Numbered from the stretch's first letter, positions 1 through 41,226 are shown. The stretch: 64,000 bases of DNA from Acholeplasmataceae bacterium (GCA_963675245.1 OY775910.1:1152001-1216000), one strand, 5' to 3'. The notes: generated from the sequence alone by a model not told the origin. Made by a program: numbers and translations.

Positions 1-789
1 CCTGTATTTCATTTAGAGGCTGGGAATAGATCGTTTGATGAAAATTTACCTGAGGAAATAAACAGAAGGATAATTGATCATGTCAGTGATGTGAATTTAT
101 GTTATTCAGAGCATGCTAGGAGATATTTGAATTTCGAAGGAACTCCCAAAGAAAGAACTTTTGTTGTTGGGTCTACCATGGCTGAAGTGTTAGATGCGAA
201 TATAGATAAGATAAATAATAGTTCTATTCTCACTAAGTTAGGATTAGAAAAAAAGAAATACATTTTGTTGTCTGCTCACAGAGAAGAGAATATTGACATA
301 GAAAGTAATTTTTTTGTTTTGATGAACGCAATAAATGCTATTGCCGAGAAGTATGATTATCCAGTAATTTATAGTGTTCATCCAAGAAGTAAAAAATATA
401 TAGAGAAAAGAAATTTTGAATTCCATAAAAATGTAAAAAGTTTAGCACCATTTGGATTTCATGATTATAATAAACTTCAACAAAATGCATTTTGTGTTGT
501 TTCTGATAGTGGAACTGTTTCTGAGGAGGCTAATTACTTTAAATATCCTGCTGTATCTATTAGAACAAGCACTGAAAGACCTGAGGGTATTGATAAAGGA
601 ACTTTTATAATAGGAAATATTACATCTCAAGAAGTATTGCAGGCTATAGAACTTGCGATTGAAATGGATTCAAATAATGATTTGAGTGTTGACATACCAG
701 ATTATATAGACAGAAATGTAAGTACAAAAGTAATAAAGATAATACAAAGTTATGTTGGGTTAGTGAATAAAACGGTTTGGAAAAAATAA
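1..789 (+). CDS. wecB: UDP-N-acetyl-sugar 2-epimerase (non-hydrolysing; WecB family, probably Cap5G/WbjD/FnlC-like), 5'-truncated by window edge
   Basis: Frame 1 is open from base 1 (PVFHLEAGNRSFDENLPEEINRRIIDHVSD). Motifs HREEN, SDSGTVSEE, RTSTERPEG. The C-terminus VNKTVWKK resembles the L-FucNAc-pathway epimerases. The ORF-track start at 91 is internal. Confidence 0.88.
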   Translation, partial: PVFHLEAGNRSFDENLPEEINRRIIDHVSDVNLCYSEHARRYLNFEGTPKERTFVVGSTMAEVLDANIDKINNSSILTKLGLEKKKYILLSAHREENIDIESNFFVLMNAINAIAEKYDYPVIYSVHPRSKKYIEKRNFEFHKNVKSLAPFGFHDYNKLQQNAFCVVSDSGTVSEEANYFKYPAVSIRTSTERPEGIDKGTFIIGNITSQEVLQAIELAIEMDSNNDLSVDIPDYIDRNVSTKVIKIIQSYVGLVNKTVWKK

Positions 790-893
790 AAATAGTGTAA
801 TCAATAAATTTATTTTGAAAAAATACCTAACAAAATTATTTAATTTAAAAATATGTATGTAATATAAGATGAATATATCACAAAGGAGAAGTT

Positions 894-2201
894 ATGAGTA
901 AAACTAAGAAAAATATCTATGTTGCTATGAGTGCAGATATAATACATGATGGTCACATAAAAATAATTAATGAAGCACACAAATATGGTGAGGTTATTAT
1001 TGGTTTATTAGATGATGAGGTTATTTCTTCATATAAAAGATACCCGTTATTAGGCTTAGAGCAACGTAAAGTGATTTTCTCATCAATTAATGGTGTTAGT
1101 CAAATAGTTGTACAAAAATCATTGGATTATTCAGATATATTACGAGAGTTAAGACCGAATTATGTAATTCACGGTGATGATTGGAAAGAAGGTACTCAAA
1201 AACCGATTAGAGAAAAAGTGTTGGAAGTTTTAGATGAAATAGGTGGAGAACTTATTGAAGTCCCTTACACTAGAGGAGTTTCGATCACTGCTTTAGAAGA
1301 AGCATTAACTGCACTAGGTACAACACCTGATGTAAGAAGAGCTAAGTTAAGGAGATTAATTAATTCAAAGGAATACGTTACAGTGCTTGAGGCACATAAT
1401 GGTTTAACAGGCTTAATTGTCGAAAAAACACAAGTTGAAGTAAACGGCAAACCTAAGTCTTTTGATGCGATGTGGATTAGTAGTCTTTGTGATTCAACAG
1501 CAAAAGGTAAACCAGATATTGAATTAGTAGACTTAACATCAAGATTGAACACAATAAATGAAGTTATTGAAGTAACTACTAAACCAATCATTTTAGATGG
1601 AGATACGGGTGGTAAAGTCGAGCACTTTGTGTACACAGTTAGAACGTTGGAAAGACTAGGTGTATCAGCCGTTATTATCGAAGATAAGGTGGGATTAAAA
1701 AAGAATTCATTATTTGGAACAGATGTTGAACAAACGCAAGATACCATTGAAAATTTTCAACATAAAATAAGAGAAGGCAAAAAAGCGCAAGTAACTAGTG
1801 AATTTATGATTATTGCTAGAGTTGAGAGTTTGATTTTAAAACAAGGTTTAAAAAATGCTTTGAAACGGGCTCATGCATACGTTGAAGCTGGTGCTGATGG
1901 TATTATGATTCATTCTAAAGAGAAAGACCCAAAAGAAATTCTTGATTTTATTGATTCATTTAGAAAAGATAATAAAAATACACCAATCGTAGTTGTTCCA
2001 TCATCATACAATACCATTACTGAACAAGAATTAAGCAAGCATGGCGCTAATATCGTTATTTATGCTAACCATTTAATTAGATCTGCATTCCCAGCGATGA
2101 AAAAAACTGCCGAAACCATTTTACAAGCCGGAAGGGCAAAGGAAGTAGATGAAATGTGTTTGCCAATTAAGCAAATTATCACATTGATTCCAGAAAGGTA
2201 G
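894..2201 (+). CDS. aepX: Phosphoenolpyruvate mutase with N-terminal cytidylyltransferase domain
   Basis: N-terminal HxGH motif (ADIIHDGHI) and HGDDW. PepM signature EDK-x5-NS (EDKVGLKKNS), EAHNGLTG, DGDTGG. SD AAGGAG upstream. Confidence 0.95.
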   Translation: MSKTKKNIYVAMSADIIHDGHIKIINEAHKYGEVIIGLLDDEVISSYKRYPLLGLEQRKVIFSSINGVSQIVVQKSLDYSDILRELRPNYVIHGDDWKEGTQKPIREKVLEVLDEIGGELIEVPYTRGVSITALEEALTALGTTPDVRRAKLRRLINSKEYVTVLEAHNGLTGLIVEKTQVEVNGKPKSFDAMWISSLCDSTAKGKPDIELVDLTSRLNTINEVIEVTTKPIILDGDTGGKVEHFVYTVRTLERLGVSAVIIEDKVGLKKNSLFGTDVEQTQDTIENFQHKIREGKKAQVTSEFMIIARVESLILKQGLKNALKRAHAYVEAGADGIMIHSKEKDPKEILDFIDSFRKDNKNTPIVVVPSSYNTITEQELSKHGANIVIYANHLIRSAFPAMKKTAETILQAGRAKEVDEMCLPIKQIITLIPER

Positions 2202-2207
2202 TACAAG

Positions 2208-3323
2208 ATGATAGATACCATTAAATTTTATGAATTTTTAAAATCTCAAGACGTAAACTTTTTCACTGGTGTACCAGATTCACTACTCAAACAAATTTGT
2301 TCATGCATTTCTGATAAAGAAAGCGATAATCACATTATCGCAGCTAATGAAGGAAATGCGGTTGGTTTAGCGACAGGTTATCATCTTGCGACTGGAAAAG
2401 TACCATTAGTATATTTACAAAACTCGGGTCTAGGTAACACTGTTAATCCTTTAATTTCACTTGCATCAGATACTGTATATTCTATTCCGATGTTGCTTAT
2501 GATTGGGTGGAGAGGTGAACCAGGAGTTAAAGATGAACCTCAGCATATTAATCAGGGTGCTGTGACAGAAGAATTATTAAAAACAATGGATGTCAATTAT
2601 GAAGTTTTATCTTTTGATTTAGAAGAAGCTATTGATCAAACTAAAAAACTTTTGGAATTGGCTACTATAAATAATAAACCAACAGCCATTCTAATCCGTA
2701 AAGACACTTTTAGTAATTATTCATTTAAAAATAATACTCAATATGAGAGCACAATAACAAGGGAAACGGTTTTAGAAGTAATTTTAAAAAACTCAAGTGA
2801 AAAAGCGTATATTTTTTCTACAACTGGTAAAACTTCTCGCGAAGTCTTTGAATTAAGAGAAAAACTTAAGCAATCACATAATAGAGATTTTCTTACTGTT
2901 GGTTCTATGGGACACACATCGAGTATTGCATTAGCATTTTCTAAATATAATTCAAGTAATGTAATATGTATTGATGGAGATGGTGCTTTACTCATGCACA
3001 TGGGATCACTTCCAATCAATTCTCAATATTCCAATACTAATTTTAAATATATTTTGATTAATAATTATGCACATGAGTCTGTTGGTGGTCAAAAAACAAT
3101 TGCCAATAAGATTGATTTTCTTAAATTATTTGACTCTGTTGGGTTTAAATATGTCAAAAGTGTATCTTCTTTAGAAGAACTTACAGATGTTCTGCAATCA
3201 AAAGAATTTAAAGATAATAATTTTGCTCTAGAAGTATTGGTTAAGTTGGGTTCTAGAAGTGACTTAGGCAGACCAACAATAAGTCCTCAGCAAGGTAAGA
3301 AAAATTTAATGGGGACTGTTTAG
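2208..3323 (+). CDS. aepY: Phosphonopyruvate decarboxylase (ThDP-dependent)
   Basis: FFTGVPDSLLK, AANEGNAVG, YLQNSGLGN, GWRGEPGVKDEPQH, GSMGH and the ThDP motif DGDGALLMHMG...NN. Directly follows pepM. Confidence 0.95.
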   Translation: MIDTIKFYEFLKSQDVNFFTGVPDSLLKQICSCISDKESDNHIIAANEGNAVGLATGYHLATGKVPLVYLQNSGLGNTVNPLISLASDTVYSIPMLLMIGWRGEPGVKDEPQHINQGAVTEELLKTMDVNYEVLSFDLEEAIDQTKKLLELATINNKPTAILIRKDTFSNYSFKNNTQYESTITRETVLEVILKNSSEKAYIFSTTGKTSREVFELREKLKQSHNRDFLTVGSMGHTSSIALAFSKYNSSNVICIDGDGALLMHMGSLPINSQYSNTNFKYILINNYAHESVGGQKTIANKIDFLKLFDSVGFKYVKSVSSLEELTDVLQSKEFKDNNFALEVLVKLGSRSDLGRPTISPQQGKKNLMGTV

Positions 3324-3324
3324 T

Positions 3325-5061
3325 ATGGATGCTTTAATCTTTAATTCTGGATTTGGTTCAAGGATTGCAGATTTAATTAAAGACTCACACAAGTCATTAA
3401 TTAATATACATGGTGAATCAGTATTATCAAGACAATTACGAATTCTAGCATCGTTTGATATTGATAAAGTGATCATTACAACGGGACCAAATACAGATAA
3501 ACTTCATTTAGAGACAGCATTAAAAAACTATCCTTTTGAGATAGTTTTTGTGCATAACTCAGTCTTTAATACAACTAATTATATCTATTCAATGCACTTA
3601 GCTAATCAGCATTTAAAAAATGACACTTTAATTCTACATGGAGACTTAGTTTTTAATGAAGGTGTAATTGAAAAGCTGATAGGTCATACTGGCGATTGTG
3701 TATTACTTGATGAAGATGTTGAATCATACCTTAAGGATTTTAAAGCAATTACAGATAATGGCTTAGTGAAGGAGATATCTACTAAATTTGAAAACTATGA
3801 TTTTGGACTTCAACCTGTCTATAAACTTTCAAAAAATTCTGTTATAAAATGGAAAAACAAAGTTAGTGAATATGTAGAAAAAGATGATATAAAAGTTTAT
3901 GCTGAAAATGCTTTAAATGAATTATTAATCAATCAAATCAAATTAAAAGGTGTTAAAATTGATACTGACTTTTGCAAGGAAATTGATACACCGGAAGACT
4001 ACCATAATATATTAAATGAAATTAATGATTATGATTATAAACAGGAAATATTGATTGGTGCATTCGAAGAACATATAAAACGAAATGTCAGCCAATCTGA
4101 TAGGGTTATTTTAGTGACATTCAGTATTATTTCTAGACAAGTCTTTGATAAACTCTCATTCATCACAAATAAAGAAGTTATTATTTATGATGATGCGAAT
4201 CCAGAAAAAGAAGACATTGTCAAATTTATAAAATTAATTGATGATTTTAATCCTGATTATGTCATTTCTGTCGGTGGTGGTAGTGTCATCGATTTTTCAA
4301 AATGTCTAATAGATTTCAGTAAAACTCTTGCAAAACACATTGCAATACCAACTACATGCGGAACAGGAAGTGAATCAACAAGATTTGCTGTTTATTATGA
4401 AAATGGTATCAAACAATCATTAAATAAAAATAAAGTTTTGCCAGATGTTGCTGTCTTAGATTCATCATTGTTACAAAGTCTTCCACGAAGTGTTTTAATA
4501 AGTAGTGTTTTAGATGCTTTCGCTCAATCCATAGAGTCATATTGGGCTAAAAAATCAACTGAGACTTCTAAGAAATATAGTTTGGAAGCATTTAAGATTA
4601 TATATCCAATTTTAAAAAAAGGGTTATCTAATGATAAAGAGACATTAGAAAAATTAGAGTATGCTTCTAATTTAGCGGGCAGAGCAATTAATATCACGAC
4701 AACGACATCTGCACATGCTTTATCATATAATATTACTAAATTATTTGGAATCCCACATGGATACGCTGTTTGTATGACATTGCCATTTATTTGGGAAGTT
4801 CATCAATCAAAAATTGAAATTTTTGATAAAATGATGGAAGAAATAGTAGATGCTTCAGAGGTACAAAATAATAGTGATTTAATTATCGAAATCTTCAACA
4901 TTCTAAATACTTATAAGGTTTGGAGAGGTGTTGAATACAATGATCAAGATTTAGACTTTCTTGTGAATAATGTTAATTTAGAGCGTCTTGGTAATAATCC
5001 ATACAAATTTAATAACTTTGAGATAAAAGAGATTTATAAAAAAGCTTTGAATATAAAATAA
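3325..5061 (+). CDS. Fusion: LicC/PntC-like NTP transferase plus iron-containing alcohol dehydrogenase (phosphonoacetaldehyde reductase-like)
   Basis: N-half has NSGFGSR, TNYIYS, HGDLVF, EIDTPED. C-half has GGGSVID, IPTTCGTGSE, DAFAQSIES, AGRAINITTTTSAHALSY, IPHG. Confidence 0.85.
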   Translation: MDALIFNSGFGSRIADLIKDSHKSLINIHGESVLSRQLRILASFDIDKVIITTGPNTDKLHLETALKNYPFEIVFVHNSVFNTTNYIYSMHLANQHLKNDTLILHGDLVFNEGVIEKLIGHTGDCVLLDEDVESYLKDFKAITDNGLVKEISTKFENYDFGLQPVYKLSKNSVIKWKNKVSEYVEKDDIKVYAENALNELLINQIKLKGVKIDTDFCKEIDTPEDYHNILNEINDYDYKQEILIGAFEEHIKRNVSQSDRVILVTFSIISRQVFDKLSFITNKEVIIYDDANPEKEDIVKFIKLIDDFNPDYVISVGGGSVIDFSKCLIDFSKTLAKHIAIPTTCGTGSESTRFAVYYENGIKQSLNKNKVLPDVAVLDSSLLQSLPRSVLISSVLDAFAQSIESYWAKKSTETSKKYSLEAFKIIYPILKKGLSNDKETLEKLEYASNLAGRAINITTTTSAHALSYNITKLFGIPHGYAVCMTLPFIWEVHQSKIEIFDKMMEEIVDASEVQNNSDLIIEIFNILNTYKVWRGVEYNDQDLDFLVNNVNLERLGNNPYKFNNFEIKEIYKKALNIK

Positions 5062-5140
5062 AAAACTTACGGTAACAAGCCTCTTCATATTTGTGATAAA
5101 ATATTAATACAATCAACCCAATTATTAGGAGGAGTTTCCT

Positions 5141-6013
5141 ATGTCAAACTATGTATTAGCTACTGATTCATGCTGTGACCTACCTTATGAATTAGTCAAA
5201 GAACTTAATCTTGAAGTCATTCCACTATCTGTAGAGATAAAAGGAAAAGTTTATCATAACTATCCAGATGAAAGATATATTAAAACAAAAGATTTTTATG
5301 AAATGATGAGAGAAAAAGAAGTTGCTACAACCTCACTCATTAATGTTGGTGAGTTCTTAGTTTTCTTTGAGCCATTCTTAAAAAAAGGAAAAGATATTTT
5401 ATATGTTGGTTTCTCATCAGCGCTATCTGGTACCGTTCAAAGTGCGCGTATCGCTGCTGAAGAGTTAAAGCTAACCTATCCTGATCGAAAGATTATGGTT
5501 GTAGATTCTCTATCTGCTTCGATGGGACAAGGTCTTCTTGTGTGGTATGTCGCGAAACGTGTGAAAGCCGGTAAACCGATTGAAGAAGTAGAAGCGTGGG
5601 TTGAAAACAACCGTCTAGAACTATGCCATCTATTTACAGTTGATGACCTAGGGACATTAAGACGTGGTGGACGTCTATCTGGTACAGCTGCTTTGTTAGG
5701 TTCTCTACTCAAGGTAAAACCAGTACTACACGTATCAGATGAAGGTAAACTCATTCCTGTTAAAAAGGCACGTGGTCGTAAGACCTCACTTCAAGTGATC
5801 GTTGATCTCATGAAGGAAAAGATAAAAGATCCTGAATCTCAAACCGTCTTTATATCTCACGGTGATGATTTAGAAGATGCGAATTATATTAAAGGCTTAA
5901 TTAGTGAGCAACTTGGCGTGAAAGAATTCGTAATTGGCCAAATTGGACCAGTCATTGGTGCACATTCAGGACCAGGAACAATCGCCGTATTCTTCTTAGG
6001 AAATCCAAGATAA
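5141..6013 (+). CDS. DegV family fatty-acid-binding protein
   Basis: TDSCCDLP, SSALSGT, VDSLSASMGQG, GGRLS, KVKPVL, IGPVIGAHSGPG. SD AGGAGG. Confidence 0.93.
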   Translation: MSNYVLATDSCCDLPYELVKELNLEVIPLSVEIKGKVYHNYPDERYIKTKDFYEMMREKEVATTSLINVGEFLVFFEPFLKKGKDILYVGFSSALSGTVQSARIAAEELKLTYPDRKIMVVDSLSASMGQGLLVWYVAKRVKAGKPIEEVEAWVENNRLELCHLFTVDDLGTLRRGGRLSGTAALLGSLLKVKPVLHVSDEGKLIPVKKARGRKTSLQVIVDLMKEKIKDPESQTVFISHGDDLEDANYIKGLISEQLGVKEFVIGQIGPVIGAHSGPGTIAVFFLGNPR

Positions 6014-6020
6014 CAAGTTA

Positions 6021-6067
6021 GAGCCACACACCTAGCAGGCCCCCCTAGCTATTTGTGTGGTTTTTTT
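6021..6067 (+). terminator. Rho-independent terminator after degV (three-segment stem, C-rich loop)
   Basis: CCACACA/TGTGTGG outer stem, TAGC/GCTA and AGG/CCT inner stems, then T7. Confidence 0.7.
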
Positions 6068-6141
6068 ATTTATTGATGCCAATTATTCTTGTTGGTGGTA
6101 AAATAATAATAGACAAACAATACACAATTGGGATGGAAAAT

Positions 6142-7248
6142 ATGAATAAAATATATGTTTCATTTGAGGAAATGAGAACGTTTATGGAAGACGCTTTTGT
6201 GCGTGTTGGCGTACCTTTTGATGATGCCAAAACATGTGCGAATGTGTTACTTGAAAGTGATTTAAGAGGCATTGATTCACATGGTGTGAATCGCTTTAAA
6301 GTCTTTTATATTGATCGGATTTTAAATGGTATTCAAGAAGCGGTCACTCATCTTGAGGTTGTTAAGGAAACCGCGACAACCGCCGTGATTGATGGTCATA
6401 ATGGGATGGGTATGGTAATTGCTACAAAGGCGATGACCATGGCGATAGAAAAAGCGAAAGTGTATGGTTTAGGCATGGTTGTTGTCAGACACTCCACCCA
6501 TTACGGCTTTGCAGGTTATTATCCTTTAATGGCTGTTAAAGAAGGTTTAATTGGGATGACGGGTACAAATGCCCGTCCAGCCATCGCACCGACATTTGGC
6601 GTCTCTAACATGCTTGGAACGAACCCCTTAACCTTCGCGATGCCAACGGATGAAGCATTCCCGTTTTTCTTTGATGCTGCAACCTCCATTGTGCAACGAG
6701 GTAAGATCGAATATTATATGAAAAACGGTTTAGATACACCAGAAGGCTTAGTGGTTGATAAAGCAGGTCAAACACTTACAGATAGCAAGAAAATTCTAGA
6801 ACGCTTAGTTAAAAATCAAGCAGCGCTTGCGCCACTTGGTGGGATTGGTGAAGCACATGGTGGCCATAAAGGTTATGGGTTCGCGACTGTTGTGGAAATT
6901 CTAAGTAGTGCTTTACAATCTGGTGCGTTTCTTCACATGTTATCCGGTGTGTCAGAAGATGGTGGTTCAAAACCAATTCCAGTCGGTCATTTCTTTTTAG
7001 CAATCAACCCTGACTTCTTTATGGGTTTAGAGGCGTTTAAGAAGACAGCGGGTGATATCCTAAGAAGTTTAAGATCATCTGAAGTAGCACCAGGTGAAGC
7101 GAAGATTTATACAGCTGGTGAAAAAGAGTATCTTCATTCATTAGAAAGAAAAGAAACGGGTATTCCATTAAACGATGTTTTAACAAAAGAATTAATAGAC
7201 GTTCGAGATCAACTCAAGATAAACCATATCTTTTCATTTGAAACATAA
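6142..7248 (+). CDS. Ldh_2 family (malate/L-lactate/L-sulfolactate dehydrogenase-like) oxidoreductase
   Basis: DLRGIDSHG, HSTHYG, LGTNP, GGHKGYG, GHFFLAINP. The ORF-track start at 6055 lies inside the degV terminator; ATG 6142 (or 6133) is more likely. Confidence 0.88.
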   Translation: MNKIYVSFEEMRTFMEDAFVRVGVPFDDAKTCANVLLESDLRGIDSHGVNRFKVFYIDRILNGIQEAVTHLEVVKETATTAVIDGHNGMGMVIATKAMTMAIEKAKVYGLGMVVVRHSTHYGFAGYYPLMAVKEGLIGMTGTNARPAIAPTFGVSNMLGTNPLTFAMPTDEAFPFFFDAATSIVQRGKIEYYMKNGLDTPEGLVVDKAGQTLTDSKKILERLVKNQAALAPLGGIGEAHGGHKGYGFATVVEILSSALQSGAFLHMLSGVSEDGGSKPIPVGHFFLAINPDFFMGLEAFKKTAGDILRSLRSSEVAPGEAKIYTAGEKEYLHSLERKETGIPLNDVLTKELIDVRDQLKINHIFSFET

Positions 7249-7382: not shown

Positions 7383-7418
7383 GTTCGTCTAATAATGATA
7401 AATTGATGGTGAAGAGTG

Positions 7419-9992
7419 ATGGCTATGATAAAAAGAATTAAACACATATTAAAAGGTATGAAAGAAACGATCCTGCATTTCGGATTGATTTCTTTAATTA
7501 TCATACCTGTTTTTATACTATTGAACACATTACTCTATATTGGCATTAATATACAAGAAGATATTATCAATACAAGTCTACAAGCATCTGCGAATAGTGA
7601 ATTAAGTAATATTACCTTATTTGTTAATGCACGTATTGATGCCCTTCATGATGATGTTCACGTGATCGTCAACGCGAATGAAACAAATGAATATTTACAT
7701 GACCAATCTATCAATAATCTTAACCAATATCAAGCGATGTTATATCGCATTATGGAGAGTAAAGAATCTTTTATTCATATCAATATCATCGAACCTACTG
7801 GTGATATAGTTTATGAGATTGAAAGACAATCTCATGAGATATTAACGACGACATCTGGTTATTTAGGTAGTATTGCATCTGAAGCATATTATCAATCAGT
7901 TTTAACGATGGATGAAGGTCAGATCTTTGTATCAACATTATATTTAAATGAAGGTCAACCGATGATGACCTATATTAAACCGCTTTATATGGATGATACA
8001 TTAATAACGATATTATCAATTGAAGTATCAGCCCATCAAATCTTATCTGTGATAGAAAATTATGCAGATGAGCATATTGATTTCTTACATATTGGTCTGA
8101 TCAATCATCACACATTATGGTCTTTTGATATGAACCAACAACTCATCATATTCACTGATTTAGAAGAAATTAATGCGATATTAAACCGAATTGATACAAA
8201 TGATTATACCATTTCAGAGATTATAGATTTTAACGATGAACAAAATCATTTTGTGACACTTGATGATAATGAATTGAACTTCTATGTAGACATGCATTAT
8301 CAAGAAGCCGTGAACGCGTCTAGTTATTATTTACTTAGATTCCCTTGGTTAATTGCCATCATCAACCTCGTGTTATTGGGTTTTATCAGTGTGATTGCTA
8401 ATCTCGTTAAATCAAGAAACGATGATAAGATTTTAACGAATGCGAATATCTATTTATCTGAACAAAGTAGTGACGCTGTTGTTGTTACGTCTTTTGACTC
8501 AAAGATTACTTATACGAATCAAGCGTTCTTAAGAAACTACGAATATCATCATGATGAGGTGATTCATCAAAATCTAGATGAGTTAATTAGTATGCCAGCA
8601 TTATATCCAAACTATGACAAATCATCTCAAAAAGAATACATTTATTTCAATTGGACAAAAACGAGATCAAACATTTATTTATTGAGACATTTACGTATTA
8701 AAAGAGAAAGTGCGGTTAGAAAGTCACGCAGACATTACATCTATGTTTATTCTGAACCGAAAATAGAACTAGATGATTATCAAAAATATATAACAAAGAA
8801 AGAAGAGACTTTAATTACGTTTAGATCGTTATTAGGTCTTGAACCACTCATCATCAATCAAACGATCGCGATTATGTTTAAACTGGATGAAACAGATACG
8901 ATTAAGTTTGCAGAATATATTATGTTGCATTGTCATGATATCAATATCGTTGCACAAGTGAAACATAATTATTTGTTACTCTATTTAAATCATGCAACAA
9001 AGTCATTTGAACAAATCATTGATGAACTTGAACTCTTACTTGAACGATATCGTTACCTACCGTATGTCGGTCAAGATTTCTCTCATCTGTTTGTGGCATC
9101 AAAAGCAGATGAGCATATCAACACCATTGACAAGCTCATGGATAGTTTAATCTTATCCTTAGAAATCGCGCGATCTAACCCACAAAACCCCCATGTCATC
9201 TATGATGAGCGTATGCATGAACAAATTGAACGTGAAAGAGAGATTAGAAACGAATTATTTAATGCGTTTACAAATGATGAGTTTTATATGGTTTATCAGC
9301 CACAGATGCACTTAAGAACAAAACGATTCTTTGGTGTTGAATCACTCTTGAGATGGCAAAATGAAAAACTTGGATTTATCTCACCTGCGGAATTTATTCC
9401 AATCATTGAAAACAGTTATTTTGTTAATCAATTAACGGCGATGGTCTTAAAGAAAGTCATTCGTGATTTTGAACCATATCGCAATCAACTACCAAAGAAG
9501 TTTAGAATATCTATTAATATCACGGCATTTGATTTTAAAGATTATGATATGGTCATGCATTTAATTGAAATCATTGAAGAAAGCGAGTTGCCAAGTGATC
9601 GGTTTATCTTTGAGATTACAGAAAGTCATTATATTGATAACATCGAAAAAACCAATCACATGGTTGATTTACTTCATGCAAAAGGTATTTTAATCGCGAT
9701 TGATGACTTTGGTACAGGATATTCATCCATCAATTCACTTAAATCAATTAAAATCGATTTAGTCAAACTTGATCGTTCATTCATTAAAGATTATCCAAAC
9801 GCGGATAATGGGGATATGGTTAAAACCATCATTAACTTAATTCATGGGTTAAAGAAAACAGTTATTGTGGAAGGGACTGAGACACAAGCACATATGGACT
9901 TCTGTGATGAAAATCATTGTGAGTATGTACAAGGGTATTATGTGTCTAAACCGGTCTCCATTAGTGAGGTAATGAAGATTATCACATCATGA
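7419..9992 (+). CDS. Membrane c-di-GMP phosphodiesterase paralog 1 (TM - Cache-like sensor - TM - PAS - degenerate GGDEF-like - EAL)
   Basis: Two TM helices flank a ~270-aa extracellular region. PAS-like DAVVVT..ITYTNQAF. EAL residues ESLLRW, SINI, FEITES, DDFGTGYSS, KLDRSF, EGTET, QGY. Start GTG 7416 or ATG 7419/7425. Confidence 0.9.
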   Translation: MAMIKRIKHILKGMKETILHFGLISLIIIPVFILLNTLLYIGINIQEDIINTSLQASANSELSNITLFVNARIDALHDDVHVIVNANETNEYLHDQSINNLNQYQAMLYRIMESKESFIHINIIEPTGDIVYEIERQSHEILTTTSGYLGSIASEAYYQSVLTMDEGQIFVSTLYLNEGQPMMTYIKPLYMDDTLITILSIEVSAHQILSVIENYADEHIDFLHIGLINHHTLWSFDMNQQLIIFTDLEEINAILNRIDTNDYTISEIIDFNDEQNHFVTLDDNELNFYVDMHYQEAVNASSYYLLRFPWLIAIINLVLLGFISVIANLVKSRNDDKILTNANIYLSEQSSDAVVVTSFDSKITYTNQAFLRNYEYHHDEVIHQNLDELISMPALYPNYDKSSQKEYIYFNWTKTRSNIYLLRHLRIKRESAVRKSRRHYIYVYSEPKIELDDYQKYITKKEETLITFRSLLGLEPLIINQTIAIMFKLDETDTIKFAEYIMLHCHDINIVAQVKHNYLLLYLNHATKSFEQIIDELELLLERYRYLPYVGQDFSHLFVASKADEHINTIDKLMDSLILSLEIARSNPQNPHVIYDERMHEQIEREREIRNELFNAFTNDEFYMVYQPQMHLRTKRFFGVESLLRWQNEKLGFISPAEFIPIIENSYFVNQLTAMVLKKVIRDFEPYRNQLPKKFRISINITAFDFKDYDMVMHLIEIIEESELPSDRFIFEITESHYIDNIEKTNHMVDLLHAKGILIAIDDFGTGYSSINSLKSIKIDLVKLDRSFIKDYPNADNGDMVKTIINLIHGLKKTVIVEGTETQAHMDFCDENHCEYVQGYYVSKPVSISEVMKIITS

Positions 9993-11558: not shown

Positions 11559-11591
11559 ATAGGACATGCTTTCACAGCATGTCCTATTTTT
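11559..11591 (+). terminator. pyk terminator
   Basis: Perfect 12-bp stem ATAGGACATGCT-TTCAC-AGCATGTCCTAT plus T run. Confidence 0.85.
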
Positions 11592-11599
11592 GGTATAAT
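11571..11599 (+). promoter_or_regulatory. Promoter of second EAL gene, overlapping the pyk terminator
   Basis: TTCACA (11571-11576), 17-nt spacer, extended -10 TGgTATAAT (11591-11599). Confidence 0.65.
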
Positions 11600-11629
11600 A
11601 CATATATAGATTGTTTCCTGGGGTTTGCT

Positions 11630-14218
11630 ATGAAACATAAAATCGTCAAATTTTTTATTAATCTAAAAATGCTATTTATCCAACTGGGATGGTTGCTCGC
11701 GATTGTCATTCCACTTTTTGTGTTTATCAACTGGGCGATTTTTACGATTGTTGATACACAAAAAGATACCATTAAAGAACGCTTATATATCTCTGCTGAA
11801 AAAGAACTTCAAAATATTGATTTATTTGTTAATACACGTTTAACATTTGTCCATGATGATATTCATGTCATTGAAAATGCCGATGAAACACATTTATATT
11901 TAGAAGATCCAACTCATGTAAACACGGAATCTTATCAACAATTGATTTATCGTATCGCTTTAAGCAAACCGTCATTTATCAATATGATGATGATGGATGT
12001 CAATGGTGATATTTTATATCAAGTTTCACGAGATGAAGATGAACAAGCTGTCGTTGTTACAGGAACGTTAGGAAGTTTATATAACGCGCTTCATTTTTCT
12101 GTCATTGAATCAATGGACACATCAAAAACCTACTTGTCAGAATTATATTTAAAAGACGGGAAACCCATCTTAACATTTGTCAAACCAATGGTTTATAATG
12201 ATGTGTTACAATCTTATCTCGTCATTGATTATGATGCCAATGACTTAACCTCAGTTTTAGAATTATACACCACAGATGAAGAAGATTACTTTGAATTTGG
12301 GTTTATGAATGACGCTGCAATTTGGCTTGTTAACGATACGTCTTTTTCATTAATGAGAAATGAAGATTTAGCCTATCGAGAAAATTTACTTGATAAAATA
12401 CTTCAAAATAGTGAAGTCGTTGTCAAATATTTTTCTTTTGACAATGAAGATCATCATTTCTTTGTGGAACAAACAAATTCACTCAGATTTTATATTATGC
12501 TTGATATTAACGCAGCCATTAATGATAGTGAATCTGTTTTTATTAGAAATGCACAATGGATTGCTGTATCAACCAATTTAATTGCAGGTGTATTAATCAG
12601 TTTTATTGCTTATATGCTTAGTGTCCGTAAAGATGATCGCTTACTCATTAATGCGAATATGTATCTTACTGTCCAAAATGAAGATAGTATCGTTATCATT
12701 GATAAAAGCTTAAGAATCATTTATATCAACCCTGCATTTGAGAAGATGTTTGGATATCATTTAAAAGATATATATCTCAAAAAGATTGTTCCAACCATCG
12801 GGGTACCTTACTTACCACTTAGATTTGATTTTAAGAAGATAAAAGAATATGACGATCATACGTGGCATATGACGAAATCAGGGATCTATTTATTACTGTA
12901 TTTAAGAGTGAAACAAGAAGCGTCAATTGTTGGTAGAAATAAACACTTCATTGGTATTCATTCCAATTCACAAATCGTCTTAGATGATTATAAACTATAT
13001 GCGAAAAACACGAGTTTCACCATGGATCCACTATTCCGGCTTTTTGAAACATTACCATTCGATGAACAACAATCCACGATGTTTTTCATTAAAACCATGG
13101 AAACAGATACCTATCATTTTGCTGATTTCATTAAAAAGCATGTCAAAAGTGATTATGTCATCACTGTTTTAAAATCTAACTTTGTGCTTATTTACGCGCG
13201 CATCAAACATGATCAGTTTATCCATGCAGTTACCCATATCGATAATCTGATTGAAACATATAGTTCATTACCTGATATAAGTAACAATTTCAGCCGAACA
13301 TTTGTCGTTGCACGTGCCAGTCATACGTTGAGTAGAATCAATCTTTTGATTGAAGCAGCACTGGTCAGTATGAGTTATGCAAAAGAACGTAAACATGTCA
13401 GATATTTCATTTACTCAGAAAAAATCAAACAACATGTGATTAGGGACTATCATATTGAAAAAGAATTATCAAAGGGTTTTAAAGAACATGAATTCTATTT
13501 AGAATACCAAGTCGTTAAAGATGTGAAACAAAACAGGTTCATTGGGGCAGAGGCATTACTCAGATGGCATAATAAACATTTAGGACAAGTATCACCAGCT
13601 GAATTTCTTCCTGTGATTGAGAACAGTATTTATATTAATAAATTATCACTGATGGTATTAAGTATTGCTATCTTTGATTTTGAACAGATGGTATCAGAAT
13701 TTAATGAAGATTTTAAAATCTCAATTAATCTTTCTCAATTTGATTTAAACAATGATTATATCATTGAACAAATGATGTTTAAAATTAATCAAAGTAATCT
13801 CACACCTGCACATTTCGTTTTTGAAATGACTGAAAATCAAATCATTAACAATCTGGAAAGAACGAAACAAACCATCGATGAATTACATCGACATGGTATA
13901 GAGGTAGCTGTGGATGACTTTGGTACTGGATACACATCCATTCATTTATTAAAGTCAATCAATGCCGATTATATTAAGATTGATAAACAATATATTAAAA
14001 ACTATCCTTCCGAAGATAATGGTCGGATGTTGGATACGTTCATTGATCTCATTCATCGCTTTGATAAACCGATTGTCATTGAAGGTGTTGAGACAAAAGC
14101 ACATATTGATTATTGTGTGAAACATCATTGTGAGTATGCACAAGGATACTATATTGCAAGACCGATGAATGCTGAGTCATTCAAAGAAAAGTTTAAACAA
14201 ACGAAAGGGGTTAAATGA
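11630..14218 (+). CDS. Membrane c-di-GMP phosphodiesterase paralog 2 (sensor-PAS-degenerate GGDEF-like-EAL)
   Basis: Same architecture as paralog 1. EALLRW, SINLS, FEMTE, DDFGTGY, KIDKQ, EGVET, QGY. ATG 11630 chosen because 11579 lies inside the terminator/promoter. Confidence 0.9.
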   Translation: MKHKIVKFFINLKMLFIQLGWLLAIVIPLFVFINWAIFTIVDTQKDTIKERLYISAEKELQNIDLFVNTRLTFVHDDIHVIENADETHLYLEDPTHVNTESYQQLIYRIALSKPSFINMMMMDVNGDILYQVSRDEDEQAVVVTGTLGSLYNALHFSVIESMDTSKTYLSELYLKDGKPILTFVKPMVYNDVLQSYLVIDYDANDLTSVLELYTTDEEDYFEFGFMNDAAIWLVNDTSFSLMRNEDLAYRENLLDKILQNSEVVVKYFSFDNEDHHFFVEQTNSLRFYIMLDINAAINDSESVFIRNAQWIAVSTNLIAGVLISFIAYMLSVRKDDRLLINANMYLTVQNEDSIVIIDKSLRIIYINPAFEKMFGYHLKDIYLKKIVPTIGVPYLPLRFDFKKIKEYDDHTWHMTKSGIYLLLYLRVKQEASIVGRNKHFIGIHSNSQIVLDDYKLYAKNTSFTMDPLFRLFETLPFDEQQSTMFFIKTMETDTYHFADFIKKHVKSDYVITVLKSNFVLIYARIKHDQFIHAVTHIDNLIETYSSLPDISNNFSRTFVVARASHTLSRINLLIEAALVSMSYAKERKHVRYFIYSEKIKQHVIRDYHIEKELSKGFKEHEFYLEYQVVKDVKQNRFIGAEALLRWHNKHLGQVSPAEFLPVIENSIYINKLSLMVLSIAIFDFEQMVSEFNEDFKISINLSQFDLNNDYIIEQMMFKINQSNLTPAHFVFEMTENQIINNLERTKQTIDELHRHGIEVAVDDFGTGYTSIHLLKSINADYIKIDKQYIKNYPSEDNGRMLDTFIDLIHRFDKPIVIEGVETKAHIDYCVKHHCEYAQGYYIARPMNAESFKEKFKQTKGVK

Positions 14219-16333: not shown

Positions 16334-16371
16334 AAAATAAGGACTAACAGTCTAACTGTCAGTCCTTTTTC
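16334..16371. terminator. Probable bidirectional terminator between ampS and EAL paralog 3
   Basis: AAGGACT-A-ACAG..CTGT-C-AGTCCTT stem flanked by A and T runs, between convergent genes. Confidence 0.65.
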
Positions 16372-18944
16372 TTTGGAATGTTAAAGAATTCTTCCATCAT
16401 ATCATCAATTGCTTTCGGTTTAGATATGACATAACCTTGTATATATGTGACATGATGTTTTTTACAATAATCGATTTGTTCTTGGGTTTCAGTGCCTTCC
16501 ACTACAACCGGTTTATGCATGTCATGGATAATACTGATCATACGTTGTAATGTAAGTCCATCATCCTTATCCGGATAACCCATCATAAATTGTTTATCGA
16601 TTTTAACATAATCGACTTCAATGGACTTTAATGAGCTAATGGATGAATAACCTGTACCAAAGTCATCAATCGCGATTTTGATATCATATTGATGAAGCAT
16701 GTTGATAATTTTATTAGTACGTTCGATATGATCAATGTAGATACTTTCCAATATTTCAAACGTGAATGTAGATGAAGGAATCTGACTCTCTTCTATCACT
16801 TTGATGAGCTGGCTGATGACATAATCATTACCAAAATCAAAACCCGATAAGTTAATTGAAATTCTAAAATTCTCTGGTAATAAAGCCAAATAAGGCTTGA
16901 TATCATGAATCACAAGGTTTAATACCATCAGTGATAAGTGATTTATATAAAAACTACTTTCTATGATAGGAATGAATTCATCCGGATAGATTTGTCCTAA
17001 CGTATCGTTATGCCATCTAAGCAGTGCTTCGGCACCTTCAAAGTGATCATTTTCAAGATTTTTTTGAATTTGATAATTTACATAGAATTCATTGTTTTGA
17101 AAGCCGTCATCTAACGCTTTATAAATTTGATGTCTGCGTTTAATATTCATCTTCATGTCAGGATGATAAAAATGATGTCTCGTGTGTTTATGATGATCCA
17201 AACATGACATCGTGATGATTAAGGCATCAATTAGTGATGTTAAATGATCAACATCATCATTAGCCTGAGCAAGGGATAGTGTATATGTAAATTCATTGTT
17301 CGTCTCTGGCAAAAAGCGATAGAAATCGACTAAATTATCGATTTGTTCAATCATCTGATTAAATTCATCTGGCTTCACATTAACGTATAGCATGATCTGA
17401 TTAAGCTTCGGTATCATGATCTCAAATTGAGGTGAAAGCTTTTGACGTAAGAAGTTAGCAAAATCATAAGAATCGGCATGATTAATGGTTAACATCATGA
17501 GTGTACTTTCACTTACAATAAATTCAAAAAGATTTAATAATAACTTGATATCATGAATTTCTTCATCGATATTTTCAACATAGTTTAAATAATTATTAAA
17601 CGATATTTTTGGTTCTGAAAAAATACCAATATAATGTTTATCTCGTTTTCCAAATGCGAGTTGTTCCTTGATTCTAATGTATTTTAATATGTAAATACCT
17701 GATTTAGAAATATCCCAATTATGACCACTAAAATCGACAGTTTGAGTTGGATCAATGTCTGGCGTTAATTGAGGGACTTGTAATACAAATTGAACATTTT
17801 TTAAAAAGACATCATCAAGATTGTAACCATAAATACGGGTAAAGGCATCATTGACATAAGTGAATCTAAGTTTACCATCAGAAATAATGACGGCATTTTC
17901 ATTTTGGGCAGTAAGATAACTATTCGCGTTTAATTGTAGTTTTGTTTCATTGTTAGCCCGCATCATATAACTAATGACACCAATAAACGTTAATAAGACA
18001 AAATTAATCGTAATCATGACCCAAAGGTGGTTTAAAATATAATAACCACTTTGATTCATAGCGGCGTTTAAATCATATAAAATGAAAATCTCAATATACG
18101 TATCAGCATCAATAATATAATCTTCTTGATATGCTCTAATATCGAATTCTCTAGATATGGCTTCTTGATTTTCAACCAGATCTGAAATGATTTCTTCAGA
18201 TAAAGAATTATCCGAAATAGGCTGAATTTGATTTAATTCACGATCAGCAATCCACACAGAACCACTACTAATTAACCCAAGTCTTAGATAATCAATATCT
18301 GTTTCAGAATACATCGAGAAAACAGATAAAAAAGATTCTGCATCATAATCAACAATTAAATAACTAATGACCACATCATCTTGAATCAGTGGCAGAATAA
18401 AGGTTAAGATAGGTGTATCTTCAACCATCTTCAGTTTTGAAATATGAATCAATTGCATGTCTAAATTCATGATGGATGTGTAATATGATTCATGAGTCAC
18501 ATCCCCAAGATTATCATTTAATACTAATAAGGTGTCATCGCTTCTTGTTAATTGATAGAAGATATCACCATTTGGATTAACTAGTTTCACATGGATAAAA
18601 TTTTCTTGGTTGGTGGATATGCGGTATAACAGCATTTCAAATTCATTTAAATTGGTATTGGATTGATCTGCTAAATAAGCTTGTGTCTCGTTCGCGTCTT
18701 TAATAACAAAAAGATCATTGTGAAGAGCTTCCATACGCGTATTGATAAATAAATCAATACCTCTGATTTCACTTAACGCGTTACTTTCTAATCCAGTTAC
18801 AATGGCGTCCCTCTGTGCATTTTGAATGATGATGTAAGCACCGTTCATAACCACAAAAAGAGGGATAATAAAAATTAAAAACCATCCCACATGTAAAAAG
18901 GTCTCTTTGATATTTCTGATGATTTTAAGTACGGCAGACCTCAT
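16359..18944 (-). CDS. Membrane c-di-GMP phosphodiesterase paralog 3 (sensor-PAS-degenerate GGDEF-like-EAL)
   Basis: Same architecture. EALLRW, SINLS, FEILES, DDFGTGYSS, KIDKQF, EGTET, QGY. SD GGAG. Confidence 0.9.
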   Translation of the reverse strand: MRSAVLKIIRNIKETFLHVGWFLIFIIPLFVVMNGAYIIIQNAQRDAIVTGLESNALSEIRGIDLFINTRMEALHNDLFVIKDANETQAYLADQSNTNLNEFEMLLYRISTNQENFIHVKLVNPNGDIFYQLTRSDDTLLVLNDNLGDVTHESYYTSIMNLDMQLIHISKLKMVEDTPILTFILPLIQDDVVISYLIVDYDAESFLSVFSMYSETDIDYLRLGLISSGSVWIADRELNQIQPISDNSLSEEIISDLVENQEAISREFDIRAYQEDYIIDADTYIEIFILYDLNAAMNQSGYYILNHLWVMITINFVLLTFIGVISYMMRANNETKLQLNANSYLTAQNENAVIISDGKLRFTYVNDAFTRIYGYNLDDVFLKNVQFVLQVPQLTPDIDPTQTVDFSGHNWDISKSGIYILKYIRIKEQLAFGKRDKHYIGIFSEPKISFNNYLNYVENIDEEIHDIKLLLNLFEFIVSESTLMMLTINHADSYDFANFLRQKLSPQFEIMIPKLNQIMLYVNVKPDEFNQMIEQIDNLVDFYRFLPETNNEFTYTLSLAQANDDVDHLTSLIDALIITMSCLDHHKHTRHHFYHPDMKMNIKRRHQIYKALDDGFQNNEFYVNYQIQKNLENDHFEGAEALLRWHNDTLGQIYPDEFIPIIESSFYINHLSLMVLNLVIHDIKPYLALLPENFRISINLSGFDFGNDYVISQLIKVIEESQIPSSTFTFEILESIYIDHIERTNKIINMLHQYDIKIAIDDFGTGYSSISSLKSIEVDYVKIDKQFMMGYPDKDDGLTLQRMISIIHDMHKPVVVEGTETQEQIDYCKKHHVTYIQGYVISKPKAIDDMMEEFFNIPKKKD

Positions 18945-39885: not shown

Positions 39886-39987
39886 ATTGACCTCCAAGAT
39901 AAGTATAACACATAAAAAAGCACCCTAAAAATCGGTTATCTATCTTGCATATTTGATATAATAAATATAAGTTAGGTGGAGATAAAC

Positions 39988-41154
39988 ATGAAGAAATTAA
40001 AAATCGGTTTATTCATAGATACATATTTTCCTATGGTAGACGGTGTCGTCATCGTTGTTCATAACTATGCATTAAGGCTGAGCAAAGTTGCAGATGTCAC
40101 AGTGTTCGCCCCAAAACCTAGAGATAAAGACTATAACATCGATCTTCCATATAAAGTCGTTAGATGTCATCGGATGAAAGTCCCATTTACTGATTATGAT
40201 TTAGGAACACCTGTATTTGACCATCAATTTAGAAAAACATTAAAACAGTCTGAACTTGATATTGTCCATATTCATTCACCATTTGAGGTGGGTAAAATCG
40301 GCGTAAAATATGCGAAAAAACATCACCTACCTATAGTTGCGTCTTTGCATAGTCAATACAAGAAAGATTTTTTAGACCGTACGAATTCTAAACTTATCAC
40401 GCATATCGCTTTAAAACAACTCATTAGTCTACTCAATAAAGCGGATTATTTTTGGGCGGTTAATCAAAAGGTTGCAGATATATTTTTAACTTATGGGTTA
40501 AAAGAATTACCTGATGTTAGTTATAATGCGACAGATATGGTGTTCAATGACGATGATAATGCTGTTGAAGCGCTACGTAAAGCGATTAAAAAGAATGAGG
40601 ATGACCATATATTCTTGTTCGTTGGACGGATTGACTTTATCAAGAATCTTGATTTTCTGATGCGTAGCCTTCACGTCTTGCATCAACAAGATTTTCCATT
40701 CCAAATGGTATTTATTGGTAGTGGCCCACATGAAAAAGCAATACAAAAGATTGCTGAAAAATCAGGCATGTCAAAACGTGTAAGATTTGAAGGTCGTATT
40801 ACAGACAGAGTCAAACTCTCGCTATATTATCGAGCTGCTGATCTCTTTGTATTCCCATCTACTTATGATACCAATTCACTGGTTCAAATTGAGGCAGCCA
40901 GTCAAAAGACACCATCCATTTTTGTTGAACATAGTGCCACCTCATATATGATAAAAAATGATGTCAATGGTTATATTGCTGCTGCTGATATCCACGCTTT
41001 TGCAAATAAGATAATTAACATATTCAAAGATCAAGATACCTATCAGAAAGTATGTGAAAATGCTTATCAAACTGTCTATCATTCATGGGATGAAGTGGTT
41101 GGAAAAGCATATGAAAGATATCAGTTAATGGCTGACAAAACGAAGGGCGATTAA
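39988..41154 (+). CDS. GT4 family glycosyltransferase (possible glycolipid synthase)
   Basis: KIGLFIDTYFPMVDGV, HIHSPF, FVGRI..IKN, ADLFVFPS.YDT.SLV.IEAA. Confidence 0.85.
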   Translation: MKKLKIGLFIDTYFPMVDGVVIVVHNYALRLSKVADVTVFAPKPRDKDYNIDLPYKVVRCHRMKVPFTDYDLGTPVFDHQFRKTLKQSELDIVHIHSPFEVGKIGVKYAKKHHLPIVASLHSQYKKDFLDRTNSKLITHIALKQLISLLNKADYFWAVNQKVADIFLTYGLKELPDVSYNATDMVFNDDDNAVEALRKAIKKNEDDHIFLFVGRIDFIKNLDFLMRSLHVLHQQDFPFQMVFIGSGPHEKAIQKIAEKSGMSKRVRFEGRITDRVKLSLYYRAADLFVFPSTYDTNSLVQIEAASQKTPSIFVEHSATSYMIKNDVNGYIAAADIHAFANKIINIFKDQDTYQKVCENAYQTVYHSWDEVVGKAYERYQLMADKTKGD

Positions 41155-41226
41155 GCCCTTTCTTTTTACTTGCATATCACATTTAAAAGCGTATAATTGA
41201 AATACACCCTAAAAGGAGATGATCAG

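Follow-up and report, generated by a model that had tools for sequence, protein, structure and literature searches.

We analyzed a 64,000-nucleotide stretch of DNA from an Acholeplasmataceae bacterium (GCA_963675245.1, OY775910.1:1152001-1216000; the whole stretch is referred to as the window) with a focus on three adjacent genes near its start. Together, these genes probably form a self-contained module that makes 2-hydroxyethylphosphonate (HEP) in its cytidine monophosphate (CMP)-activated form, to be passed to a surface glycan or glycolipid. The three open reading frames (ORFs) encode 435, 371 and 578 amino acids (aa) and are separated by only 6 bases (genes 1 and 2) and 1 base (genes 2 and 3). 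An ORF cut at its 5' end by the window start precedes them by 104 bases (Table 1). An earlier note on this DNA had described the gene content, the domain fusions, the shared orientation and the tight packing behind an epimerase gene; exact coordinates, gap lengths and equivalog matches bear all of this out. As three adjacent genes match above curated cut-offs, chance is not an issue.

Table 1. Features of the window, with residue numbers of the encoded protein in brackets
Feature	Position	Strand	Basis
Gene 1, Fom1-like cytidylyltransferase (CyTase) fused to phosphoenolpyruvate (PEP) mutase	894-2201	+	Pfam, NCBIfam, PDB matches
Gene 1, CyTase domain (7-137)	912-1304	+	PF01467 CTP_transf_like (14-112)
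Gene 1, H-D-G-H, HxGH signature (18-21)	945-956	+	
Gene 1, substrate loop SSYKR	1026-1040	+	
Gene 1, PEP mutase domain (148-434)	1335-2195	+	PF13714 (152-410)
Gene 1, EDKVGLKKNS (263-272)	1680-1709	+	
Gene 2, phosphonopyruvate decarboxylase (thiamine-diphosphate enzyme, Ppd/AepY/Fom2)	2208-3323	+	TIGR03297; TPP_enzyme_N, TPP_enzyme_C
Gene 2, GDG-x25-NN (257-286)	2976-3065	+	
Gene 3, nucleotidyltransferase-dehydrogenase fusion	3325-5061	+	
Gene 3, N-terminal LicC/PntC-like nucleotidyltransferase, His-type clade	3325-4044	+	PF12804, PDB, custom hidden Markov model (HMM)
Gene 3, GFGSR	3349-3363	+	
Gene 3, His105	3637-3639	+	
Gene 3, C-terminal group III (iron-type) alcohol dehydrogenase (ADH), presumed phosphonoacetaldehyde reductase	4072-5061	+	PF00465 (250-379), PF25137 (392-575)
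Gene 3, GGGS	4273-4284	+	
UDP-GlcNAc 2-epimerase (non-hydrolysing), C-terminal 262 aa	1-789	+	PF02350 (E 5.7e-63), from position 93 to 346 of the 347-position profile
AT-rich 104-base spacer	790-893	+	ribosome-binding site AAAGGAG a few bases 5' of the ATG at 894
Ldh_2-family dehydrogenase	6055-7248	+	best NCBIfam match L-sulfolactate dehydrogenase (253.5 bits; cut-off 500)
PAS-EAL protein	7416-9992	+	
PAS-EAL protein	11579-14218	+	
PAS-EAL protein	16359-18944	-	
ORF of 112 aa	32540-32878	+	no Pfam match
ORF of 261 aa	37854-38639	-	no Pfam match, also at E ≤ 0.05
GT4 glycosyltransferase (392 aa), then PgpA-like phosphatidylglycerophosphatase	39976-41736	+	
ORF of 128 aa	50961-51347	-	no Pfam match
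Starch/maltodextrin block	45888-63999		

The CyTase domain of gene 1 scored 40 bits against PF01467 (cut-off 21) and carries the HxGH signature. Over residues 7-137 it matched the structure of the Fom1 CyTase domain (5x3d) with 150.9 bits (E 1.6e-43), and the mutase domain matched the solved PEP mutase 5unc (E 1.5e-44). In Fom1, the counterpart of the substrate loop is A-S-Y-K-R, and the S-Y-K-R part is common to both proteins. The Fom1 domain is the HEP cytidylyltransferase as cited by Rice et al. (2019). In sequence, the gene 1 CyTase domain is closely homologous to this enzyme, and it may likewise cytidylylate HEP. [quoted passage not shown]

Gene 2 matched the phosphonopyruvate decarboxylase equivalog TIGR03297 with 432.5 bits, well above the cut-off of 312.5. 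It contains a GDG-x25-NN stretch, which we take to be the thiamine-diphosphate motif (presumably GDG-x(24-27)-NN).

Gene 3 joins a nucleotidyltransferase to a dehydrogenase. Its N-terminal domain matched NTP_transf_3 (PF12804) over residues 4-121 with 33.9 bits (cut-off 27) and scored 198.8 bits against an HMM of 42 clustered nucleotidyltransferases from 40 of the related loci described below. Among solved structures, it matched Tde1415 of Treponema denticola, a fusion of PntC with a transaminase (AEPT) for 2-aminoethylphosphonate (AEP) (6pd1, E 7.2e-07 over about 120 residues), and LicC (1jyk, E 4.3e-04); its relation to the PntC domain of Tde1415 appears distant yet specific. The C-terminal domain was recognized by Fe-ADH (PF00465) and ADH_Fe_C (PF25137) and scored 312.2 bits against an HMM of 24 ADHs from related pepM loci; the closest solved structures are generic iron ADHs (1vhd, E 2.9e-30). 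Residues D397, Q401, H464 and H478 occupy the presumed metal-ligand positions of this family. GGGS, D397, H464 and H478 are invariant or nearly so in the 24 locus ADHs and in 119 fused homologues. Position 401 is Gln in 112 of the 119 fused homologues and in 13 of the 24 locus ADHs, and His in the remainder. Since Gln401 is the family norm, it is a family trait rather than a sign of decay. Every relative of gene 3 among at least 120 matches listed is a nucleotidyltransferase-ADH fusion over its full length (identity 35-64%, coverage 96% or more), and the named ones (n = 4) are annotated only as "iron-containing alcohol dehydrogenase".

From these gene identities, motifs and domain architectures, we infer the following catalytic steps, with CTP as the nucleotide. 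The PEP mutase domain would convert PEP to phosphonopyruvate, and the decarboxylase would convert phosphonopyruvate to phosphonoacetaldehyde, pulling the unfavourable mutase step forward; for both steps, the assignment rests on the equivalog-level matches. The Fe-ADH domain of gene 3 would then reduce phosphonoacetaldehyde to HEP, as suggested by context and by the mutual exclusivity of ADH and aminotransferase (see below). HEP and CTP would be joined to CMP-HEP by the PntC-like domain, the Fom1-like domain or both, a prediction based on homology to two characterized phosphonate cytidylyltransferases and on the residue pattern. In the last step, HEP would be moved to a surface glycan or glycolipid by a phosphotransferase of the LicD or a similar type whose gene lies outside the window; the existence of this enzyme and the acceptor are proposed by analogy.

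The likeness to Fom1 in both domains of gene 1, together with a reaction order that is the same up to CMP-HEP (Rice et al., 2019), could also point to a fosfomycin-like synthesis of a small-molecule phosphonate antibiotic, whose first three enzymes would be the homologues of Fom1, Fom2 and FomC. However, the cassette has no gene for a methyltransferase, an epoxidase, a CMP-hydrolase, resistance or export beside it, and its relatives carry glycosyltransferases, LicD, Wzx and Wzy instead. The window proteins were scanned with Pfam, first the 7 ORFs of the cassette region and then 42 further larger ORFs; the latter were housekeeping genes. Membership in a fosfomycin cluster was rejected, since the Fom3 methyltransferase, Fom4 epoxidase and FomD hydrolase were absent among the window neighbours and the 42 further ORFs. 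An antibiotic pathway is highly improbable and close to refuted.

PhpC-type enzymes degrade HEP in some bacteria (PMC13576164), so that the dehydrogenase might oxidize environmental HEP to phosphonoacetaldehyde as a phosphorus source. Degradative clusters pair such a dehydrogenase with PhnX or PhnY-PhnA (PMC13576164), whereas the dehydrogenase of the window shares a polypeptide with a nucleotidyltransferase and is grouped with PepM and Ppd, with no hydrolase or transporter gene adjoining. The catabolic role was therefore rejected as extremely unlikely.

Recurrence of the domain set in related loci

A scan of species-representative genomes yielded 383 relatives of gene 1, the best 80 of which were taken for a comparison of loci (ORFs called within 6 kb of the match, clustered, and clusters named by Pfam; three loci without a called gene 1 ORF were left out of the trees). 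Ppd was encoded in 69 of the 80 loci, an Aminotran_5 enzyme of the AEP transaminase type in 34, an Fe-ADH in 24, a stand-alone PntC-like nucleotidyltransferase in 40, and LicD in 18. ADH and aminotransferase occurred together in a single locus (L033), with the ADH 4 kb away. The two enzymes are alternatives for the slot after Ppd and almost mutually exclusive. The window cassette belongs to the ADH type: no aminotransferase was found by Pfam among the genes directly downstream, in agreement with the earlier note, and an HMM trained on 34 AEP aminotransferases from such loci had no hit at E ≤ 1 in a six-frame translation of the entire 64-kb window.

A PntC-like domain was present in 19 of the 23 loci with ADH only. 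It stood alone beside gene 1 in 10 of these, preceded the CyTase-PepM part in the same protein in 7, and was fused to the ADH, as in the window, in 2 (L002 and Mycoplasmatota bacterium WC30). Eight of the 23 ADH-only loci encoded LicD at a distance of no more than 6 kb. Because the arrangement of the PntC-like domain varies over the ADH-only loci, the set of PntC-like domain, CyTase-PepM, Ppd and ADH is best described as a recurrent unit with shifting fusions.

Among at least 120 matches listed for gene 1, all were CyTase-PepM fusions, and 3 had an additional PF12804 domain. The closest of these were four proteins with 82-86% identity, followed by the WC30 protein with 77%; Clostridia and other relatives did not exceed 72%. 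Most of the best 80 of the 383 loci belonged to Bacillota, and the rest included Methanosphaera, a nanoarchaeon, Vibrio, Bacteroides, Chloroflexota and others. Mycoplasmatota contributed one (WC30), a partial answer to the survey of pepM across Acholeplasmatales that had been proposed earlier. In the tree, the archaeal, Pseudomonadota and Bacteroidota cassettes were nested among Bacillota, which suggests wide horizontal spread. The surprise voiced at finding such a cassette was overstated, as it is common and horizontally mobile, with 383 relatives. According to Rice et al. (2019), PepM is fused to PF01467 in 23.6%, to PF12804 in 33.0% and to both in 2.9% of cases, and pepM clusters often contain more than one nucleotidyltransferase; the HEP branch accounts for 8.5% of 434 pepM neighbourhoods (Li and Horsman, 2022).

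Triple fusions of about 669 aa, with PntC-like, CyTase and PepM domains, were seen in eight loci (L016, L019, L022, L023, L029, L030, L034 and L060). Each was followed by a stand-alone Fe-ADH, except in L022, where the contig ends first. ADH-type cassettes with 59-62% identity to gene 1 were found in L014 and L063 (Methanosphaera stadtmanae metagenome-assembled genome, MAG), L047 (Nanoarchaeia MAG), L059 (Vibrio) and L060 (Bacteroides MAG).

A third type of locus (L025, L045, L048, L065, L068, L072 and L076, as well as the cut locus L053) contained neither an AEP aminotransferase nor an Fe-ADH. Its gene order was metallophosphoesterase, NAD epimerase, DUF6564, saccharopine-dehydrogenase-like protein, CyTase-PepM and Ppd, and its CyTase loop, with N or D at position 48, was like that of aminotransferase-type loci. 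This type may represent an undescribed branch point after phosphonoacetaldehyde.

In the Treponema PntC (Tde-PntC), Glu104 and Glu196 contact the amine of AEP, and the acidic residue equivalent in LicC is Asp105 (Rice et al., 2019, section 8). His105 of gene 3 paired with Glu104 in a HMMER alignment. In an alignment of 53 PntC-like domains, this column held His in all 20 domains of the ADH type, whereas 27 of the 28 of the aminotransferase type had Glu; the sole exception was the second, very divergent copy in L035. Elsewhere, it held Asn in the one locus with both enzymes, and Glu (3) or His (1) in four incomplete loci. The GxGxR plus Lys signature of PntC-like enzymes is present in gene 3, with G9, G11, R13 and K23 invariant in 20 of 20 ADH-type domains. 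In the column of Asn195 of the window protein, an acidic residue (D or E) occurred in 23 of 26 domains of the aminotransferase type, and N in 15 of 20 of the ADH type; this column is a candidate counterpart of Glu196. The CyTase loop behaved similarly: position 48 was K or R in all 24 ADH-type proteins and in none of 33 aminotransferase-type proteins, which had N, D, W or G. Both nucleotidyltransferase domains of the window thus carry the residue pattern of the ADH type, and the N-terminal domain of gene 3 is predicted to work like PntC, though not like an AEP-type PntC.

Host and presumed surface-glycan setting

Of the 120 closest relatives listed for the ClpB protein, 14 were named by organism, and 12 of these were of the Acholeplasmataceae, Tenericutes or Mycoplasmatota type with 80-84% identity: Acholeplasmataceae (8), Mariniplasma anaerobium, "Tenericutes bacterium" (2) and "Mycoplasmatota bacterium". 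The remaining two carried generic Bacillota/Firmicutes MAG labels. Arginine deiminase, an MG045-type lipoprotein match, a GT4 glycosyltransferase beside PgpA, and starch-use genes also fit such a host. An Acholeplasmataceae-like host is therefore supported by the sequence, as had been proposed. Judged from taxonomy, it is presumably wall-less: the family Acholeplasmataceae is predicted to be devoid of peptidoglycan, but the GTDB order Acholeplasmatales to include both thin-walled and wall-less species (PMC10868615). A lack of wall genes in 64 kb carries no weight in this question.

The cut ORF upstream of the cassette matched TIGR00236 (wecB) with 161.8 bits; within the window, it is the sole visible piece of the presumed upstream glycan locus. 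A scan reported no plus-strand promoter-like sites in the spacer 790-893 and no plus-strand terminator-like sites across 600-6200. The scan was uninformative, with 26 promoter-like sites observed versus 28.5 expected. The GC content of the cassette was 30.7%, compared to 34.6% (standard deviation 1.3) in 110 equal-length downstream windows, none of which was as low; that of the epimerase ORF was similarly low (30.3%). According to Pfam, the cassette is followed by DegV, Ldh_2 and PAS-EAL genes.

The nearest named relative is the cassette of Mycoplasmatota bacterium WC30 (L004), which consists of the same three genes (431, 371 and 578 aa). It is directly preceded, in this order, by two GT4 glycosyltransferases, a hexapeptide acyltransferase, a Wzy-like, a sulfatase-family, a Wzx flippase, a 247-aa, a TviB-like and a TviC-like protein gene, and followed by a GGDEF gene on the minus strand (L004, 14262-15380) and no DegV. 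The 247-aa protein was missed by the Pfam LicD model (E 0.083), but matched a custom LicD HMM with E 3.8e-09, and hhalign aligned it with LicD at 97.1% (E 4.8e-11), with GTLLG...D-T-D-I-D in register. The WC30 cassette closes a Wzx/Wzy polysaccharide locus with a LicD-like gene. In L002, a Bacillota MAG, the same ADH fusion has a LicD gene directly behind it.

In an unrooted gene 1 tree obtained with a quick method, the window and WC30 were sisters (support 97), joined by L002 (88), and the three sat within a 19-row clade mixing Lachnospiraceae, Paenibacillus, Clostridium, Methanosphaera, Vibrio and others. The context in WC30 and L002, the mixed-taxon clade and the low GC content of the cassette together argue for a mobile surface-glycan module; acquisition and inheritance by Mycoplasmatota cannot be told apart in a tree that has no root.

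The sulfatase-family protein of WC30 belongs to the sulfatase/alkaline phosphatase family, has 402 aa, and is encoded between the Wzy-like and Wzx genes (L004, 4305-5513, plus strand). Five other loci encode sulfatase-domain proteins of larger size (570-899 aa). Genes for LicD-type choline phosphotransferases and arylsulfatases occur in pepM-aepY-phpC neighbourhoods (Lockwood et al., 2022).

For a glycan as acceptor, the best support is the analogy with WC30. We also considered that the HEP/CMP-HEP chemistry is the same, but that HEP is transferred to a membrane glycolipid or a diacylglycerol-type lipid, with no polysaccharide or capsule involved. Glycolipids and lipoglycans dominate the surface in Acholeplasmataceae, and the host is Acholeplasmataceae-like. 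Mycoplasma fermentans makes phosphocholine-bearing glycoglycerolipids with a LicD-like enzyme, which would be a precedent. A DegV/FakB-type gene for fatty acid binding starts 79 bases downstream of the cassette on the same strand. However, the cassette is preceded by a UDP-GlcNAc 2-epimerase gene, its counterpart in WC30 ends a Wzx/Wzy-type polymer locus with no DegV after it, and no CDP-alcohol phosphatidyltransferase is encoded beside the window cassette. On balance, a lipid acceptor seems unlikely.

Strength of the HEP assignment

Several findings speak against the reading of the cassette as a module for CMP-HEP synthesis and surface transfer. The ADH domain of gene 3 scored only 136.3 bits against TIGR03405 (Phn_Fe-ADH, the PhpC/PsrA equivalog), short of the cut-off of 423.7. 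TIGR03405 was still its best-scoring NCBIfam family, but AdhE followed closely with 121.8 bits, so that the substrate is assigned from context. In our mapping, the canonical His at the second metal-ligand position is presumably replaced by Gln. The ADH-type PntC-like domains fall into a single, well-supported clade (21 rows) and the label changes once on the tree, and the His/Glu split is therefore one evolutionary event; moreover, 24 alignment columns separate ADH-type from aminotransferase-type domains equally well. For K/R at position 48 of the CyTase loop, there were only 2 independent contrasts, both in the expected direction (sign test, p = 0.5). Two nucleotidyltransferase domains occur in nearly every locus, and the proposed route leaves the role of the second unexplained. 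The cited pepM literature holds no product chemistry for cassettes of the window type. Finally, the 64-kb window contains no LicD, CDP-glycerol-type, sulfatase-type or DUF6564 homologue according to Pfam and custom HMMs; of six HMMs for neighbour families (LicD, sulfatase-type, YidC-glycerophosphotransferase, glycerophosphotransferase, DUF6564 and AEPT), none matched anywhere in the window at E ≤ 1. In the absence of a transferase homologue, the transfer step is unsupported for the window genome itself.

With so few independent contrasts on the trees, we treat the residue signatures as clade markers with a structural rationale and not as statistics: they are meaningful by where they sit, not by how often they are counted. 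The description of the ADH as being of the "PhpC/FomC type" in the earlier note holds for its presumed role, but not for family membership, since the TIGR03405 cut-off was missed. PhpC-type enzymes are zinc-dependent and very divergent, with identities down to 26.8% (PMC13576164).

Alternatively, the end product could be AEP or another phosphonate, with the Fe-ADH acting on a different aldehyde or alcohol and an unlinked aminotransferase or upstream tailoring setting the head group. Such a scenario would fit the ADH score, which is below the TIGR03405 cut-off and close to that of generic aldehyde/alcohol dehydrogenases, and DNA upstream of the window start lies outside the stretch. The two nucleotidyltransferases could also hint that cytidylylation is transient and precedes further chemistry, as it does in fosfomycin synthesis (Rice et al., 2019). 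The scenario is countered by the near mutual exclusivity of ADH and aminotransferase over 80 loci, by the ADH-type residues in both nucleotidyltransferase domains, and by the 10 kb upstream of the WC30 cassette, which contain no aminotransferase, dioxygenase or radical-SAM gene. We regard it as quite improbable. HEP rather than AEP, as originally proposed, remains the predicted product, consistent with an Fe-ADH in the slot after Ppd, the residue patterns and the homology to Fom1.

More specifically, we tentatively propose that the presumably wall-less host attaches HEP to a surface glycoconjugate via an uncharacterized bifunctional "CMP-HEP synthase", in which a phosphonoacetaldehyde reductase is joined to a His-type PntC, that the His residue marks an HEP-specific PntC clade, and that two nucleotidyl activations are needed. 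If true, HEP- and AEP-decorated microbes could be distinguished from sequence alone via the His-for-Glu change, and the constant second, Fom1-like cytidylyltransferase would point to a pathway that needs two nucleotidyl activations, for a reason so far unexplained.

Neighbouring genes and comparison with known systems

The Ldh_2-family dehydrogenase gene, two genes after the cassette, was considered as a phosphonopyruvate or phosphonolactate enzyme and rejected: neither WC30 nor the other 79 loci have a homologue close to the cassette, and as it is not conserved there, it was dropped from the module. Its best family match, a 2-oxo-acid reductase with a sulfonate analogue of phosphonopyruvate as its substrate, is suggestive. 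The three PAS-EAL proteins (860-880 aa) are paralogues with PAS near residues 350-400, a C-terminal EAL domain (E 1e-56 to 1e-66) and no GGDEF at E ≤ 0.05, so that several genes of the c-di-GMP phosphodiesterase type lie just downstream of the phosphonate cassette.

Further downstream, the GT4/PgpA pair may serve the membrane glycolipid synthesis typical of Acholeplasma and could be a source of acceptor lipid. The large starch/maltodextrin block encodes an alpha-amylase, a 973-aa enzyme of the pullulanase type and a glycogen phosphorylase that the window end truncates. Also encoded there are a nucleotidase-like surface protein with Ig-like domains, a PUD-domain protein and an ABC sugar transporter, the permeases of which are unusually long (860 and 461 aa). 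Three ORFs were without Pfam match (Table 1).

The cassette is a new member of a described type of phosphonate pathway. Every enzyme family and the pathway logic have been described before, and it therefore represents no new kind of biology; what is new is a modest, testable annotation rule. Comparison of the 80 loci yields this rule for HEP- versus AEP-type cassettes (His versus Glu in the PntC-like domain, K/R versus N/D/W in the CyTase loop) and brings to light a widespread, unstudied reductase-cytidylyltransferase fusion. Both could help to annotate better the numerous pepM clusters of gut and environmental Bacillota. Phosphonate head groups are resistant to phosphatases and alter surface charge, and a role in host, phage and immune recognition has been proposed; a module in Mycoplasmatota would extend phosphonate surface chemistry to membrane-only envelopes with glycolipids and lipoglycans.

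We found no published report of phosphonate biosynthesis in Mollicutes, although supplements in non-text form may list such genomes; this agrees with the earlier note, which knew of no characterized phosphonoglycan in this group. Neither the main texts of PMC9381506 and bioRxiv 2020.11.04.368217 nor the text supplements of PMC6697681 and PMC8942020 contain the terms Tenericutes, Mollicutes, Mycoplasm- or Acholeplasma. Tenericutes is also absent from the main texts of the latter two, and Mollicutes from that of PMC8942020. The term "alcohol dehydrogenase" does not occur in PMC6697681, and beyond this check, no literature search was directed at the fusion of reductase and cytidylyltransferase or at the His/Glu difference.

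The Streptomyces fosfomycin enzymes Fom1, Fom2 and FomC, which lead from PEP to CMP-HEP, share with the window the CyTase-PepM fusion, the decarboxylase, a group III ADH and the S-Y-K-R loop, with HEP as the expected intermediate and CMP-HEP as the expected activated form (Rice et al., 2019). In contrast to that system, the window encodes none of the later fosfomycin enzymes, has an extra PntC-like nucleotidyltransferase fused to the dehydrogenase, and places the cassette in a sugar-nucleotide/glycan locus of a low-GC, Acholeplasmataceae-like genome.

In Stackebrandtia nassauensis, which makes an HEP-bearing exopolysaccharide, a PepM-Ppd-Fe-ADH branch leads to HEP attached to a polysaccharide, as is predicted for the window, and a product is known for 2 of 10 PhpC-type cluster families (Li and Horsman, 2022). 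Compared with these neighbourhoods, the window cassette comes from a different phylum, has different fusions, and belongs to a type from which no product has been isolated.

Tde1415 of the T. denticola Pnt pathway resembles gene 3 in that a phosphonate-making enzyme is fused behind a LicC-like cytidylyltransferase. That pathway also has a second nucleotidyltransferase on PepM and a proposed surface decoration via LicD-like transferases (Rice et al., 2019). In the window, the similarity to Tde1415 is weak, the fusion partner is an alcohol dehydrogenase and not an aminotransferase, His takes the place of Glu104, and HEP is predicted instead of AEP. An alcohol-making reductase and an activating cytidylyltransferase are also combined in one polypeptide in the bifunctional CDP-ribitol synthases of capsule and teichoic acid synthesis, which differ from gene 3 in that they belong to unrelated enzyme families and use a phosphate ester rather than a phosphonate as substrate.

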